A DNA stretch of 64,000 nucleotides from Myxococcales bacterium (GCA_012960035.1 DUBZ01000013.1:3228-67227); one strand, 5' to 3'; counted from the stretch's first letter, positions 29,964 through 52,840 are shown. The notes: generated by a model not told the origin, from the sequence alone. Numbers and translations: made by a program.

Positions 29964-31250
29964 GTGAGAATCGCTCTGACCCACAAATTCCTTTCGGGAT
30001 CGCTACTCGTAGCGGCGTCTGGCGGGATCCTGCCTTGGGGCTTCCGAACCCTCGGACTCGAGTTTTCCGAGTGGGGATCGATGTTCATTGCACTCGGTGT
30101 CGGCGGTGGGCTCGGCTTTGCTTTGTCGCGAAGTCTGGGTCGCAAGCTCGAGGTGTTGCGCGAGGCGACTGACAGAATTCAAGCGGGTGACTTGACCGTG
30201 CAGTTGAAGGTTTCGGACCGCGAGTTTTTTGCGGACGAGACTGACGAACTCGCCGTTAGCGTGAAGGGCATGTTGAGCCAGCTCAATACGTTCGTACACC
30301 GCGTGCAAGACAACGCAGACTTGGTGACCACTGCCGCACACGACCTGACTCGAGAGATCGAAAACGTGCGCGAAGTCAATGAAGGCATTTCGAACACAGT
30401 CTCTACCGGGACCGAAGGCAATGCCCGAAAGCGAGAGCTTCTCGATCGCGCGACCAAGTTGATTGGACGGATCTCAAGCGACATCGAAGTGAACGCGGGT
30501 CGTGCGCGGGAAGCATTTGGCTTTGCTGCGGAAGCGAACCAGAAGGCAAGCAACGGTGTTGAAGTGTCGGGGCTCGCGATCGACAAGATGAGGGCCGTAT
30601 TCGAGCGCGTTGAAAAAACGGGGCAAATGGTGTTCGACCTCGAAGCCAAGACCGGCCACGTCCACCAGATCACCGAAATCATTACGAGCGTTGCGCACAG
30701 AACGAACTTGCTGTCGCTCAACGCTTCGATCGAAGCCGCACGAGCGGGTGAAGCGGGCCGCGGCTTTTCGGTTGTGGCGGACGAGATTCGCAAGCTCTCG
30801 GAAAGCGCCACGCGTAGCGCAGACGAGATCTCAAAACTGATCAACGAAATTCAGTCGGACACCAGTGAAGTCGCCGACGAAATGCGACAGTCGAGCGAAG
30901 TAATCACGGAAGGTCGCGAGGACGTCAATACGATCGTGGACTCACTCGGTGAGATCAGCATGGCGGTTGGCGAAGCCGCCGCACGTTCCGAAGCGATTTT
31001 TCACGATGCCGACGAGCACGCCATCAGTGCCGAGCGCATGGTGGCCGCGATGAGCGAGCTCAAGGGCAGCACTGAAGAAAGTGACAGTACCCACAGCGAA
31101 GTTGCCCGCATGGCTTCGGGCCAGCTTGGTGCCGTTTCAAAAATGGTGGGTGGGTCACTTGCGCTATCGACCGCCGCCGAAGAATTGCGCGAACTGCTGA
31201 GCCACTACCGAACCGCGGGTGGCGGAAGCGAAGGGGAGGGAGGAGCATGA
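29964..31250 (+). CDS. Methyl-accepting chemotaxis protein without periplasmic domain (DifA-like)
   Basis: Two closely spaced TM segments, HAMP region, [23 protein letters not shown] tip. Confidence 0.92.
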
Positions 31251-31720
31251 GCGAGCTTCCCGTTCCCGATGACAGCGTTTCAGGCAATCGTCTCATGACG
31301 TTTGAGGTGGGCGGCAACGTTTACGGACTACCGATTTCCGAAATTCTCGAAGTGGTGGAGCAGTCGGGTTTTAGCTGCGTCCCGACCCTGCCGCGGGAAT
31401 TGGGTGGCGTGATGAACTGGCACGGCGAAGCGCTGCCGGTGGTGGCGCCGCATTTGTTGCTGGGTGGATCTCCTGTAGTTGCACGCGAGTCGGGAACTCC
31501 GCAGCAGTTTCTCGTCGTGACCGATGGCTTGGATGTTGTCGCCCAGTTGGGATTGCCGATCGATTTTGTCTCTGGGTTGGTTGATGGAGAGCCGGGCCGC
31601 GCGCGGGGCGAAGACGTCGTCGTCGAACGCAGAACGGTGGATGACCGTGTTGTCAGTGTGATCAACCCGCAGCGCCTTGTGGCGCGAGCGGCAAAAATCA
31701 TAGAAGGTGCTGTTGCCTAG
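31247..31720 (+). CDS. cheW: CheW coupling protein (DifC-like)
   Basis: [28 protein letters not shown]. Confidence 0.85.
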
Positions 31721-31747
31721 CGGTATTGCAGCCAAGTTGGAGGAAAC

Positions 31748-32131
31748 ATGAAAGCTCGAGTTCTAATTGCTGATGACGCTTCTTTCATGCGGCAGATGAT
31801 TCGCGAGATCATCGAGCCCGAAGGTTACGAAGTCGTTGGAGAAGCAACGAATGGAATGGAGGCCGTGGAGCTTTACCTCAAACTGCAGCCCGACCTCGTC
31901 ACGATGGACATCGTGATGCCCAAGCGCAGTGGGATCGAGGCGGTTCGCGGCATTCTTGCCGAAGACCCGCTCGCACAGGTCGTGATGTGCAGTGCGCTCG
32001 GCCAAGAGACGTTGGTCATGGAAGCCCTTCATGCCGGTGCGAAGAACTTCATCGTGAAGCCCTTCAAGCCCGACGCAGTGCTTTCGACCCTCGACCGCCT
32101 TCTTGAAAAAGAAGACATGGCGGGCGAATAG
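31748..32131 (+). CDS. cheY: CheY-like response regulator (DifD-like)
   Basis: IADD, TMDIVMP (phospho-Asp), CSALG, IVKPF. Confidence 0.92.
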   Translation: MKARVLIADDASFMRQMIREIIEPEGYEVVGEATNGMEAVELYLKLQPDLVTMDIVMPKRSGIEAVRGILAEDPLAQVVMCSALGQETLVMEALHAGAKNFIVKPFKPDAVLSTLDRLLEKEDMAGE

Positions 32132-32134
32132 TCA

Positions 32135-33915
32135 GTGGCACTCGATATGGCCAAATACCGGGTCCTCTTCCTCGAAGAGGCCGCAGAACACCTTGCCGAC
32201 ATGGGCAAGGCTCTGCTCGATCTCGAAAAGGACACGGCGTCAGCCGAGTCGATCGACGTGATCTTTCGGATGGCCCACAGCATCAAGTCGATGGCGGCCT
32301 CGGTTGGCTACGACCCGGTGATGGAAGTGTCGCATGCGCTCGAAGACCGCATGGAAACCATTCGCAGTGCTGGCTGTGTTCCGCCCGGCGATTCGTTGAG
32401 CTTGTTGTTCCGGGGGCTCGAAGGCCTCGAACAGATGGTCGCGATCGTCAGCGAAACCGGTGAAGCGCCCCCGGAACGCCCCGATCTCGTTTCGGAACTG
32501 TCGGTGCCCATTGAAGCGACTCCGGTGACTTCAATGTGCGTTGAATCCGAATCAACCCCACCCCCCGAAAGTTTGCCCGAGCCTCCTGACGCTGCTGAAC
32601 TCGACGTTGAACTCGCCGCGGTGATGGCTGCCCTTGAGGCCGAGGCGGGAGCAAAAAAAAAACTCTTGAACTGACTCCGGTCGTCGCTCACGACGATGGG
32701 GCTTTTGCCTCCGGGGCGGGTCAAGAGAACGGCGCCGCCGTAACGGGTCCTGGGCAGAGTCTGCCCGTACCCGCGCCTACCGTCCGCGTTCGCACGCAGA
32801 CGCTCGACAAATTTCTCGGTGCCGTGGGCGAAGTGATTCTCAGCTCGCGGCAGCTACGTGGCGCTGCACAATCGGGTGTGAGCGGTGCCGAACGCGCCGA
32901 GCGCTTTGATCGCGTCGAACGCCGGGTCAACGAGCTCCAGCGACGCGTGCTCGACTTGCGCACGACCCCGCTCTTGCGCGTGATGGAAAATTTGCCCCGG
33001 GTCGCCCGTAAGGTTGCCGAAGCCCAGGGCAAGCGGGTTGACGTTCAGTTGCTCGGTACGGAGCTCGAACTCGATCGCTCGATCCTCGACAGACTCAGCG
33101 AACCCCTGCTCCACATTATTCGCAACGCCGTCGATCACGGGCTCGAAGTGATCGAGGAACGGATTCGCAAGGGGAAACCCGAAGTCGGCCAGGTGGTGAT
33201 CGAGGCGCGACGCGAACGTAATTCGATCGTCATTGAGGTGACCGACGACGGCAAGGGGATCGATCTTGCGGCGGTGCGCACCCGCGCCATCCAAGTGGGT
33301 CTGCTGCACCCGGACCTTGCCGACGATCTGCCAAAAGAAGAAAATCTAAATTTGATCTTTCAGCCGGGTCTCTCGACCGCGGCGCAGTTGAGTGATGTGT
33401 CGGGCCGCGGTGTGGGAATGGATGCCGTCAAAGCGACAGTCGAAGCGCTCGGCGGTTCGGTCAACCTTGCGAGCACCGAAGGACAGGGGACGACGACTCG
33501 ACTGGAAGTCCCGATTACCGCTGCCGTTCAGCGTGTGCTGTTGGTCGAGGTGTCGGGCGAGCGCATCGCGCTGCCGATCGCCAAGGTTGAACGCATTGTC
33601 GAAGTACCCCGGGCTTCGATCGAAGACAGTGGCGGCGAGATGTTTACGCTCGTCGACGACGAGCCCATCTTGGTGATCGATCTCGCAGAGTGCATGCAAA
33701 TGGATCGCACCGAAATGCCCGACCCGGTCCCCCTCGCCGTGACGGACGTGCGCGGTGAAATCGTTGCGCTCAGCGTCAACAAATTTGCCGGACAACAAGA
33801 AGTCTACGTGAAACCCGTGCCCGAACTCCTTGCTGGAGTGAAGGCGCTTGCGGGCATGACGATCCTCGAAGACGGAAGTCCCGTTTTCTTACTCGATCTC
33901 AACCACCTGGTCTAA
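32135..33915 (+). CDS. cheA: CheA histidine kinase (DifE-like) in two frames joined by a -1 shift at A10 (32653-32662)
   Basis: Frame 0 (32135-32674): Hpt domain FRMAHSIKSMA. Frame -1: TVRVRTQTLDKFLGAVGE dimerisation, HIIRNAVDHG, DDGKG, SGRGVGMD, CheW-like P5. Confidence 0.9.
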
Positions 33916-33928
33916 GTCGGAGTCCCGT

Positions 33929-34525
33929 GTGACGGCCGCCATGGAAGAACAGATCGACCGCTTGAGCGAACTCGCCAATATTGGTGCGGGCCACGCTGCG
34001 GGTGCGTTCTCTCTTCTTACCGGTCATACGATCAGGATGGCTGTGCCGCGCGTTCGATTGACCTCTGCCTTGACCGCAAATGAGCCGGCACCGGACGACC
34101 CGCTCGAATTCGTGAGCCTGGCGACTGCCGACCGCGGTTGGGAGTCAGGAGTCATCTTTGAGTTCGATGGTTGCTTGCACGCGATTCTCGCGATTCTTTT
34201 TCGGCGCCCAATGTGTGACGCGGTGGTGCGCAATTTGACTGGGCAGTCAGAAGGTTTCTTGCCTCCGGAAACGATCGAGAGTGCGTTGATGGAATTGGGC
34301 AATGTTCTTGCGTCCCACGTTGCGTCCGCGATCGCCGACACCCTCGGTGCACGGCTCTTGCCTTCGATCCCCATGCTTTCGGTTCACGATGCAATTCCGC
34401 AACTCGAAGCGTTGGCGGCGACGCATCCTGGTGCGGGCCAAGTCTGGATCGAAAGCGAGTTGCTCGATGGCGACGGCAATCTCGGCGGACTGGTTGTGAT
34501 GATCCCGGACCGTGAGACGGCCTGA
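33929..34525 (+). CDS. cheC: CheC-family phosphatase (DifG-like)
   Basis: Two ExxN motifs: ELANIGAG and ELGNVLAS. Confidence 0.85.
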   Translation: MTAAMEEQIDRLSELANIGAGHAAGAFSLLTGHTIRMAVPRVRLTSALTANEPAPDDPLEFVSLATADRGWESGVIFEFDGCLHAILAILFRRPMCDAVVRNLTGQSEGFLPPETIESALMELGNVLASHVASAIADTLGARLLPSIPMLSVHDAIPQLEALAATHPGAGQVWIESELLDGDGNLGGLVVMIPDRETA

Positions 34526-34620
34526 ACTCCGCGCGATCGCTCGGCCCAATCTCCCGGGGCCGCAACGGCAGCCGCGATCTGTATTTGATACCGTGCATCC
34601 CCTTCGGCGAAGGGTGTGAG

Positions 34621-35370
34621 ATGGAACGCGATCGGATCAGGCAACTTCTCGAAAAAGTGAAAGACGGCGACGTCGACATCGACGGTGCGATGAAGTCGCT
34701 GTCGAGCCTGCCGTTTATCGACACGCCGAACGCTCGGGTCGATACCCAGCGTTCGTTGCGGATGGGGATCCCCGAAGTTGTGTACGGACCGGGCAAGACG
34801 CCGGGACAAATCGTCGAAGTCGTCACAGCGCTTCGCGAAGCTGAACAAAGCGTGCTCGTAACAAGGGTCGAACCGTCCGCAGCACAAGATGTTTTACAGG
34901 CGTTTCCAGCTGGCGAGTACGACGAAGTCGCACGCACGCTCTGGTTCGGCCCTGCCGAAGTCCCTGTGATTGGAAAGGGCACGATCATGATCGTGTGCGC
35001 AGGGACGAGTGACCTGCCCGTCGCCGCTGAAGCATCGGCGGTTGCTCGCCGCTTCGGCAATAAGGTCGAGATGCTGATCGACGTGGGTGTTGCGGGTATT
35101 CATCGCTTGCTTGCGTCCCACGACGTTTTGCAGAACGCGCGGGTCTTGATTGTCATCGCCGGAATGGAAGGCGCGCTGCCGTCCGTCGTGGGAGGGCTTG
35201 TCGACAAGCCCGTCATCGCCGTGCCGACGAGCGTGGGGTACGGCGCCTCATTCGGAGGTGTCACTGCGTTGCTCGGCATGTTGACCAGTTGCGCGTCCAA
35301 TGTGACGGTGGTCAATATTGATAACGGGTATGGCGCCGCGTATGTCGCGACGCTCATCAACCGGCTCTAA
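34621..35370 (+). CDS. larB: Nickel pincer cofactor biosynthesis protein LarB
   Basis: AGTSDLPVA, DVGVAGIHRL, AGMEGALPS, VPTSVGYG, VVNIDNG. Confidence 0.93.
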   Translation: MERDRIRQLLEKVKDGDVDIDGAMKSLSSLPFIDTPNARVDTQRSLRMGIPEVVYGPGKTPGQIVEVVTALREAEQSVLVTRVEPSAAQDVLQAFPAGEYDEVARTLWFGPAEVPVIGKGTIMIVCAGTSDLPVAAEASAVARRFGNKVEMLIDVGVAGIHRLLASHDVLQNARVLIVIAGMEGALPSVVGGLVDKPVIAVPTSVGYGASFGGVTALLGMLTSCASNVTVVNIDNGYGAAYVATLINRL

Positions 35371-35380
35371 GGCTGTATCC

Positions 35381-36760
35381 GTGACCGCAAGGCCAAAGTC
35401 TCCGCGCAAGGCAAGACGAACGTCCGCCCCTAGAACGATTGCGGCTGGGCGGGTTCTTCATCTTGATTGTTTCTCCGGTATTTCGGGGAACATGTTTCTC
35501 GGCGCGCTGCTCGACCTCGGGCTTTCACGCAAAGAACTCGACGCAGAACTTGCGGGCCTTGGCGTCGACTACAAACTGAAGGTGTCGAAGGTCGCGCGAG
35601 GTGCGATTGCCGCGAAGTATGTGGACGTGTTGATGCCCGGCGCAAAGCGAGCGTCGAAAAAGGCACCTGCGAAAAAGAAGAAGGCCGCGAGTAGGGCGCA
35701 CACTGACCACCATCCGCACACGCGCGATGATCACACCCACGTCCATCCCCATCCCCACACGCATCCCCATGCGCACCCCCACGCCCAGCACAGCCACGGC
35801 AAGAGCTACAAACAGGTACGCGCGATCGTCGAAAAGGCGAAGCTGGCGGCAGCCGTTCGAGAGCGCGCGCTTGCGATCTTTGAAGGGCTCGCCGTTGCAG
35901 AAGGCAAGGTTCACGGTGTCGCCCCAGACGATGTCCACTTTCATGAAGTCGGCGCCATCGACGCGATCATCGACGTCACCGGGGCGGCGGTTGGCCTGCA
36001 CCTGCTCGGGGTGGAACGCGTGACATCGTCGCCGGTTGCACTCGGACACGGCACGGTGCAAACCGAACACGGACTTCTCCCGCTCCCGGCGCCTGCCACG
36101 ATGGAACTTCTGCGCGGGATGCCCACGGTCCCGGCCCACGTCGCCTGGGAAACTGTGACGCCGACTGGCGCGGCAATCCTTCGCAACATCGTCGACGAAT
36201 TTTCGCCGCTTCCCGCGATGACGATCGACAAGATCGGCCATGGCGCAGGCAACGACCGCGCAGGCGAGATGCCCAACATTTTGCGCGCGGTGCTGGGTTC
36301 CACCGGGCAAACGTCGTCAGATCGGATTAGCTGCCTCGAATGCAATCTTGACGACTTCAACCCCGAACACTTCGACTACCTGATGGAGCGTTTGTTCGAC
36401 GAGGGTGCCCTCGACGTTTCCTTGCAAAATATCCAGATGAAGAAGAACCGCCCTGGCTTCCTGGTGCGGGTCCTTGCACGCCCTGACCAACGGGTGCGCT
36501 TGTCTCAAGTGTTGATGAGCGAGTCGACAACGCTGGGGGTGCGAACAACCGATTGGGAGCGAGTGGTTCTGCCGCGGACCCGCCGCAAGGTTGCGACGGA
36601 CTACGGCCGCATCGCGGTGAAGGTCACGGAGACTCCCGACGGTCGGCTCGACTATTCTGCGGAATACGACGATTGCAAGCGAGCCGCGCGCAAGCACAAG
36701 GTTGCGTTGCGCGATGTGGTACGGGCTGCAGAACGGGCTGCCGAGAAGAACGCCGGTTAA
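35381..36760 (+). CDS. larC: Nickel insertase LarC with His-rich region
   Basis: DCFSGISGNMFLGAL, His-rich tract, VHFHEVGAIDAIID, TPTGAA, ECNLDD, MKKNRPG, EYDD. Confidence 0.93.
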   Translation: MTARPKSPRKARRTSAPRTIAAGRVLHLDCFSGISGNMFLGALLDLGLSRKELDAELAGLGVDYKLKVSKVARGAIAAKYVDVLMPGAKRASKKAPAKKKKAASRAHTDHHPHTRDDHTHVHPHPHTHPHAHPHAQHSHGKSYKQVRAIVEKAKLAAAVRERALAIFEGLAVAEGKVHGVAPDDVHFHEVGAIDAIIDVTGAAVGLHLLGVERVTSSPVALGHGTVQTEHGLLPLPAPATMELLRGMPTVPAHVAWETVTPTGAAILRNIVDEFSPLPAMTIDKIGHGAGNDRAGEMPNILRAVLGSTGQTSSDRISCLECNLDDFNPEHFDYLMERLFDEGALDVSLQNIQMKKNRPGFLVRVLARPDQRVRLSQVLMSESTTLGVRTTDWERVVLPRTRRKVATDYGRIAVKVTETPDGRLDYSAEYDDCKRAARKHKVALRDVVRAAERAAEKNAG

Positions 36761-52692: not shown

Positions 52693-52840
52693 TGCGATCT
52701 CCAGTTCGCGCCAAGGCGCGACACACGCGGGGGGGGGATCGCCGGCACTTCCGACGAGGTCGCCTCCCCAACGCGATGATGGGGCGGTGCCGCGGAAGCT
52801 TTTGAGAAGAGGGTCCTAGGTGGATCGAGGACCCGAAGAA

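Follow-up and report, generated by a model that had tools for sequence, protein, structure and literature searches.

The stretch of DNA analyzed here, a 64,000-nucleotide (nt) segment of the assembly of an uncultured marine Myxococcales bacterium (GCA_012960035.1 DUBZ01000013.1:3228-67227; referred to below as the window), carries on its plus strand a cheA gene, encoding a chemotaxis kinase, whose coding sequence changes frame at a run of 10 A's (A10; 32653 to 32662), the putative slip site. The 0-frame open reading frame (ORF; 32135 to 32674) encodes 179 amino acids (aa) with an HPt (P1) domain (Pfam Hpt; E = 7.8e-15) and ends at a TGA codon (32672 to 32674) located 9 nt past the run. The −1 frame is open from 32638 to 33915 and overlaps the 0 frame at the run, and the part that continues the gene (32662 to 33915) encodes a linker followed by the P3 dimerization, P4 ATPase, and P5 CheW-like domains (Pfam H-kinase_dim, HATPase_c, and CheW). 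Joining the two frames at the run places P1 (Hpt), P3, P4 (HATPase_c), and P5 in order, which is the architecture of CheA, within a chemotaxis (che) operon.

Read in the 0 frame, the run lies in GCA AAA AAA AAA CTC, such that its 3' end coincides with a codon boundary and its last seven bases, A_AAA_AAA, are in the correct phase for a −1 slippery heptamer. A G-rich, Shine-Dalgarno (SD)-like motif, GGGAG, is found just 5' of the run (32647 to 32651) and may have a role in slippage. The first ATG, GTG, or TTG codon in the −1 frame is the GTG at 32824, inside P3. This A10 is the longest A/T homopolymer of the source assembly, a draft of 162 contigs (5.5 Mb; 59% GC). The genome encodes one tRNA-Lys(UUU) and one tRNA-Lys(CUU), and AAA accounts for approximately one-third of its Lys codons. 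Directly 3' of the run, a three-way RNA junction is predicted (32663 to 32727). Comparison with orthologous loci makes it very likely that cheA carries programmed −1 recoding, as the earlier note on this sequence had proposed.

The frame break in orthologous loci

Orthologs were collected by searching 41 related genomes with the HPt part of the gene and then by a scan with one genome per species, which added 50 loci, all from metagenome-assembled genomes (MAGs) of uncultured Myxococcota. The frame relation was established at 70 loci by tblastn with the N and C parts of cheA. Two later batches comprised 13 and 20 loci, the second chosen to take in every match with a long open frame, and the final census consists of 82 non-redundant orthologous cheA loci. 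In the orthologs from the 41-genome search, the open frame also ends after approximately 135 to 200 aa, with an A-run at the same place. Among the first 70 loci, 62 have a −1 relation with a run of A7 to A10, 4 are cut by a contig end directly after A10, and 4 are single-frame. The −1 relation with a run holds for 64 of the 82 loci in the census (36 with A7, 4 with A8, 8 with A9, and 16 with A10), and the run ends on a 0-frame codon boundary in 64/64. The rest comprise 2 cut loci, 15 single-frame loci (10 without a run, 1 with A8, and 4 with A10), and 1 locus in the +1 relation (A10).

One family of the order contains four fused cheA genes (L088, L091, L092, and L096) that keep A10 in frame at approximately positions 688 to 703 of each oriented locus, and in L105 an A10 (695 to 704) is followed by the kinase part in the +1 frame. 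Thus, long runs occur in all three registers, whereas the A7 runs are all −1.

An order-wide search, taken as giving an unbiased proportion of fused versus split genes, unlike the census with its deliberately chosen second batch, found an ortholog in 156 of 193 genomes at an E value of ≤1e-30. Among the 150 matches listed (with 8 more beyond these), 14 have an open frame of at least 530 aa, and all 14 were verified as fused; the open frames of the other 136 range from 124 to 470 aa. A quick IQ-TREE phylogeny with SH-aLRT support (53 rows; 50 split and 3 fused loci) places fused genes within split clades: L048 is sister to an A7 locus, L013_A7 (support, 99), and L018 falls within a clade of A8 and A9 loci (support, 100). 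In L048, an A8 precedes downstream bases identical to those of its split relatives, so that the gene reads through in a single frame and therefore shows the expected shifted product. This arrangement goes back to the ancestor of an order of uncultured Myxococcota. Several MAGs with a Myxococcota-type cheA locus are labeled Spirochaetaceae, Desulfobacterales, or Deltaproteobacteria in their records; the Spirochaetaceae and Desulfobacterales labels are probably taxonomic mislabels, since these rows sit among Myxococcota on the protein tree.

No ATG, GTG, or TTG occurs in the −1 frame between −90 and P3 in 26 of the 64 −1 loci; an ATG is present in 7 and an SD-like motif upstream of a start in 8, with no conservation of position. 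Contigs of an independent DNA sequencing run from a different study (X7) cross the A10 without an indel, and, in total, three DNA contigs from two runs (X7 and X1, the latter possibly from the source sample) have no indel there. Contigs from the RNA libraries of two different studies (X15 and X16, the latter representing a sister variant) also carry A10 without a gap, with the qualification that contigs hide minority run-length forms and RNA libraries may contain DNA. To judge from these sequences, a miscall, a pseudogene, and a split gene are all poor explanations of the break, because the A-run and −1 layout recur, fused relatives are nested among split ones, no start is conserved, and independent contigs agree. 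In 37 of 50 loci, the distance from the run to the 0-frame stop is exactly 9 nt (28 TAG and 9 TGA). The position of this stop looks to be under selection, since TAG is built from the Leu codon CTA, which by a crude count makes up approximately 4% of the Leu codons of the source genome.

The che operon as a whole, delimited by ORFs and Pfam matches, spans 29964 to 34525 on the plus strand. Upstream of cheA, and on the same strand, Pfam identifies genes encoding a methyl-accepting chemotaxis protein (MCP; 29964 to 31250), CheW (31247 to 31720), and a CheY-like receiver (31748 to 32131); a CheC/CheX gene follows (33929 to 34525). A second, conventional cheA paralog with a 709-aa open frame is found elsewhere in the genome (G000:C146:24209-24493), so the recoded kinase is not its sole CheA. 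Downstream of the operon are larB (AIRC) and larC (Ni_insertion, formerly DUF111), at 34585 to 36760; larC is a single 480-aa ORF here, and DUF111 is among the families for which programmed frameshifting, at up to 39%, is given as confirmed in the excerpted text of PMC3711429. The assembly also contains 43 G/C homopolymers of 9 to 11 bases, such as the G9 at 52729 to 52737 in the window, versus only 4 A/T runs of at least 9. This excess is odd at 59% GC and may mark other slippage-prone or phase-variable sites.

RNA structure 3' of the run

The minimum free energy (MFE) of 32663 to 32727 is −34.7 kcal/mol, and the centroid structure is identical to the MFE fold. An extended lower stem, formed by an outer stem (32663 to 32669 with 32721 to 32727) directly 3' of the run and a 3-bp extension (32671 to 32673 with 32717 to 32719), carries an inner junction (32675 to 32716) consisting of stem 2 (32675 to 32679 with 32712 to 32716), hairpin 1 (32680 to 32686 with 32691 to 32697), and hairpin 2 (32698 to 32702 with 32707 to 32711); the 0-frame stop lies between the outer stem and stem 2. 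All four pairings drawn in the earlier note are thus present, and its drawing is essentially the MFE structure, except that G32680 closes hairpin 1 rather than stem 2 and that hairpin 2 has 5 bp. The earlier note had conceded that GC-rich DNA can fold by chance. The observed energy is reached by 0 of 200 dinucleotide shuffles (z = −4.48), by 4 of 1,000 synonymous resamplings of the −1-frame codons (z = −3.08), and by 1 of 1,000 codon permutations (z = −4.77). By itself, the inner junction has an MFE of −20.8 kcal/mol (z = −2.79; 2 of 200 shuffles reach it). When the whole window is scanned in 65-nt windows at a step of 3, an MFE of −34.7 kcal/mol or lower is found in 16 of 21,312 windows on the plus strand and 21 of 21,312 on the minus strand. 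The predicted fold is therefore stronger than composition alone gives and is within the best-folding ~0.1% of these 65-nt windows. The identical fold is retained in a 211-nt context, which also contains an interrupted 12-bp hairpin at 32744 to 32773 (plus strand), 17 nt past the junction. Among the 21 best-folding minus-strand windows are some from the antisense strand of approximately 32739 to 32809 (5' ends at 32803 to 32809).

For the relatives, all 65-nt windows of each gene served as the background for the best of those with a start at +0 to +9 from the run. The mean z relative to the gene background is −1.80 in the first 50 loci, with 29 of 50 in the gene's top 5%, and −1.56 in all 64 −1 loci, with 32 of 64 in the top 5%. 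The positional folding profile is lowest for windows starting at +6 to +15. At the fixed offsets of +1, +7, and +13, the mean dinucleotide-shuffle z values are −1.16, −1.52, and −1.16, with z ≤ −2 in 13, 18, and 15 of 50 loci, whereas at the control offsets of −72, +200, +400, +600, and +800 the means are −0.16, −0.06, −0.34, +0.15, and −0.08, with z ≤ −2 in 0 to 4 of 50. Since the shuffle z is strong at the fixed offsets and near zero at the controls, composition is not the cause of the downstream folding.

The A7 lineages have in common a GC-rich hairpin of 9 bp and a 4-nt loop; it begins 14 nt past the run, one base beyond the 0-frame stop. In the 50 aligned loci, the columns that would form it (36 to 44 with 52 to 60) are paired in 72.2% of cells, versus 58.0% with shuffled partners (0 of 500 shuffles reach the observed value) and 36 to 50% with slid partners, and the covariation score is 0.375 versus 0.191. 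RNAalifold predicts the hairpin unaided (−21.8 kcal/mol) in a 23-row clade that was set by the protein tree and not by the feature, and within it two of the pairs vary as CG/UG/AU/UA and UG/CG/GC/UA. In the A7 lineages, the alignments thus indicate conservation of the +14 hairpin, including compensatory changes. The inner junction of the window, at +13, occupies this family-typical position, and the outer stem is added to it. Extension of the conserved hairpin by a lower stem was considered as a general trait and set aside, having been seen, by eye, in L047 and L066 but not in the loci as a whole. No signal was found for an upstream hairpin of the polymerase slippage type: windows ending 8 nt before the run have a mean z of −0.16 (A7, −0.07; A10, −0.52).

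A G-rich block is also found 5' of the run in many A7 loci. One large clade (L043 to L056, L059, L063, L066, and L070) has a near-invariant G-rich block, GGTGGGGGGCGARCC, directly before the A7 heptamer, within the 15 nt that precede the run, which may act as an SD-like 5' stimulator. Its 6-nt spacing to the heptamer is shorter than that known for dnaX.

Structure fades as the run lengthens. The median percentile of the downstream window within its own gene is 0.011 for A7 (36 loci, 24 in the gene's top 5%), 0.035 for A8 (4 loci, 2 in the top 5%), 0.185 for A9 (8 loci, 2 in the top 5%), and 0.382 for A10 (16 loci, of which L001, L002, L006, and L007 are in the top 5%). The difference between A7 and A9-A10 has a Mann-Whitney P value of 3.7e-5, which is overstated because relatives are not independent. 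The mean dinucleotide z of the A10 loci at +7 is −0.23. The A10 label changes at least four times on well-supported branches of the tree, and two clean sister comparisons, L010 versus L042 and L020/L030 versus L012, have the weaker structure on the A10 side. The excerpted text of PMC3711429 gives shifts of 10% at 7 A's, 40% at 9 A's, and 63% at 11 A's for Escherichia coli reporters of another gene family. Taken together, this suggests that run length and 3' structure are interchangeable; we read it as meaning that a short run needs the hairpin and that a long run largely does not.

Mechanism and alternative explanations

Most ribosomes that read the A10 would stop three codons later and release a free 179-aa HPt (P1) phosphotransfer domain. 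A fraction would either shift to −1 on A_AAA_AAA or translate mRNA with one extra A, yielding full-length CheA with P1, P3, P4, and P5, and the cell would use both products. In the A7 lineages, the slip would be aided by the conserved GC-rich hairpin located 14 nt past the run. In the genome of the window, the run would have grown to A10, and the 3' element would be a lineage-specific three-way junction with its inner part at +13. According to this model, the junction would be an auxiliary 3' stimulator of ribosomal −1 slippage, acting on top of an already very slippery run, a role to which we give a probability of about one in two.

Several observations weigh against such a role. A slippery site and its structure are usually separated by a spacer of 5 to 9 nt, but here the outer stem directly abuts the run (0 nt; +1) and the inner junction begins at +13. 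Because the outer stem starts immediately after the run, and given the footprint of the ribosome, its 5' arm would lie within the ribosome decoding the run, and a barrier would be possible only from +13 inward. Nor does the junction have comparative support. It exists in only two sequence variants, the other being that of L002, a metagenome contig (L071), and the X16 contig, which differs by two substitutions, one in the loop of hairpin 1 (A32690>G) and one that breaks the C32677-G32714 pair of stem 2 (G32714>C); this sister version keeps the topology at −28.7 kcal/mol (z = −2.45). Scans for the exact pattern of the run plus 13 nt returned one metagenome contig and three genome contigs, all of them already-known variants. 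Four other loci of the same genus match the window for ~25 nt past the run and differ from there on, and two loci of the genus, L003 and L004, are less well folded than the background of their own genes (z = +1.84 and +1.37). RNAalifold predicts 0 pairs on all 50 loci. Rfam gave no match within positions 32300 to 33100 at E values of up to 1 and none at the site in four relatives; the sole Rfam hit in the relatives, Guanidine-III on the other strand of L056 (E = 0.99), was below threshold and was ignored. Hairpin 1 consists of Val-Val (GTC GTC) and Asp-Asp (GAC GA.) codons that are mutual reverse complements, so protein conservation alone could create it, and a short GTCG...CGAC hairpin persists across the genus. 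The A10 loci as a class show little downstream structure, and A10 may need no stimulator. The RNA-library contigs, which show A10 only, exclude no more than majority polymerase slippage, since contigs drop minority forms. By this comparison, the three-way junction is private to this lineage. The fold does beat its shuffles, but as independent support for a programmed break, which is how the earlier note used it, it is weak, coming from one lineage plus one near-identical variant, with notable structure in only 4 of 16 A10 loci.

It is quite possible, although we would not expect it, that recoding is programmed but is achieved mainly by RNA polymerase slippage that adds one A, with the junction being a by-product of a GC-rich, weakly constrained linker and having no role. 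A10 is within the range of "An, n > 7" given for transcriptional realignment in the excerpts of PMC3711429, a range that leaves out the 36 A7 relatives, and the reporter series in the same source has shifting rise with run length. Polymerase slippage would also fit the fading of structure with longer runs and the gain or loss of the A10 label at least four times on well-supported branches. The A10 frame relation is not fixed (16 loci at −1, 4 in frame, and 1 at +1), as would be expected if the polymerase can insert as well as skip A's. Moreover, a structure on the 3' side should have no effect on the polymerase, because it has not yet been transcribed when the run is copied. On the other side, the fold of the window ranks in the top ~0.1% of its 64 kb and beats synonymous recoding, its inner stem is at the family-typical +13/+14, and A10 rather than A11 is the main form in contigs of two RNA libraries, although this last point is weak given that minority forms would be hidden.

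The remaining explanations dispense with recoding, and all are improbable to different degrees. The least so is a split kinase, in which P1 and the P3-P4-P5 core are separate proteins and the core is translated from its own start. Free P1 domains can be phosphorylated in trans by CheA cores in E. coli and, with CheA3/CheA4, in Rhodobacter sphaeroides, and some ATG, GTG, or TTG codon precedes P3 in the −1 frame in 38 of 64 loci; however, the first such start in the window is the GTG at 32824 inside P3, 26 of 64 loci have no candidate, positions are unconserved, and an SD-like motif is present in only 8. A split kinase would also leave unexplained the phase of the run (0 in 64/64) and the nesting of fused relatives among split ones. 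Phase variation at the DNA level, with a hypermutable A10 switching CheA by replication slippage, or decay of the gene is slightly less likely still. A10 tracts are mutable, A10 loci occur in frame (four) and at +1 (one), and the genome contains many long G/C homopolymers, but 64 species-level genomes have the same −1 register with both halves intact, 36 of the 64 loci have tracts of A7, a length with low mutability, no indel is present in three DNA contigs from two runs, and a 3' hairpin conserved with compensatory changes would have no role in a DNA switch. Lastly, one missing A would restore the frame, and the assembly could therefore have miscalled a true A11 in an intact gene. This is scarcely credible, since the same A10 and −1 layout is found in independent assemblies from many projects and in the X7 DNA contig of a different study, and since the A7 relatives share the layout.

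For the A7 loci, the in-phase heptamer, the covarying 3' hairpin, and the 5' G-rich block are together indicative of ribosomal −1 frameshifting as in dnaX and IS3 elements, a reading that does not explain why the 13-nt spacer between run and hairpin exceeds the usual 5 to 9 nt. For the A10 of the window, ribosomal slippage and RNA polymerase slippage are both plausible. A broader scenario, which we offer tentatively and would not bet on, is that the order has repeatedly exchanged two ways of recoding, one ribosomal, with A7 and a covarying hairpin, and the other a structure-free A9-A10 depending on polymerase or unaided ribosomal slippage. Both would keep a set ratio of P1 to CheA, the window would be an intermediate with a long run and a strong new structure, and the free P1 would be functional as a phosphate sink or as a trans-substrate that tunes signaling.

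To our knowledge, only a handful of cases of programmed −1 recoding are known in bacterial chromosomal, non-mobile genes. Conserved recoding of the central chemotaxis kinase would provide a new route by which a single gene yields both a free phosphotransfer domain and the full kinase. Annotation is affected as well: these cheA genes are called as two ORFs or as pseudogenes in well over 100 genomes of Myxococcota. With structure declining step by step as runs lengthen, the loci offer a natural series for the trade-off between run length and RNA barrier. A well-folding RNA beside a frame break is suggestive, but the decisive evidence here is comparative, and the three-way shape is not the conserved part. 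The present analysis contributes an evaluation of the junction and describes the covarying +14 hairpin, the inverse relation of run length and structure, and the in-frame and +1 A10 variants.

Comparison with known recoding systems

A literature search found no description of a −1 site in cheA, although the cluster tables in the supplements of PMC3711429, which the search did not cover, could list one. The excerpted text on FSscan (PMC2790909), which concerns +1 hotspots in E. coli, mentions cheA.

The likeness to IS911 drawn in the earlier note extends to predicted topology only, a three-way junction 3' of an A-rich heptamer; the cheA site does not belong to the IS911 family of elements. The slippery motif of IS911 is A_AAA_AAG. 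As in the orfA-orfAB arrangement of this IS3 family element, the cheA site would fuse two overlapping ORFs by a −1 shift at an A-rich heptamer, giving a fusion product in addition to a short 0-frame product, and it has a predicted three-way junction on its 3' side. The IS911 3' stimulator is described in the excerpts of PMC5009743 as a three-way junction with constituent stem-loops. Unlike the transposase gene of IS911, cheA encodes a chemotaxis kinase (Pfam Hpt, H-kinase_dim, HATPase_c, and CheW), and its site further differs in having an A10 run, an outer stem at +1, a junction that is unconserved even within the genus, and no Rfam match.

A second point of reference is dnaX, which, like cheA, is a chromosomal, non-mobile gene. 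E. coli dnaX uses ribosomal −1 frameshifting with a G-rich 5' block, a heptamer, and a 3' hairpin ~6 nt from the heptamer, whereas Thermus dnaX relies on transcriptional slippage at an A-run. In their three-part arrangement, the A7 cheA relatives look like the E. coli site, and the long-run, structure-free relatives resemble the Thermus solution. The differences from dnaX tau/gamma are that, in cheA, the shifted product would be the long, complete protein and the unshifted product a truncated domain, that the hairpin is 13 nt rather than ~6 nt from the heptamer, and that both recoding styles would occur within one gene family of one bacterial order.

CheA species with and without a covalent P1 are known from CheA-L/CheA-S, which arise by alternative initiation, and from the split CheA3/CheA4, which are the products of separate genes. 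The cheA gene described here would likewise give rise to both kinds of species, but by a change of frame at a slippery run.

Another parallel in a cellular gene is the Mg-/cobalt-chelatase (chlD type), for which excerpts of PMC3711429 and PMC9227772 describe a two-ORF annotation, a −1 shift at A-runs that vary in length among species (7 to 11 A's), and fused homologs elsewhere. Similarly, cheA is a cellular gene in two ORFs, with a −1 relation at A-runs of varying length and with fused homologs. It belongs to a different protein family, and a relation between run length and structure is not reported for the chelatase in those excerpts (PMC3711429 and PMC9227772). By analogy, the cheA site would work like the classical −1 cassettes and the chelatase A-run sites.

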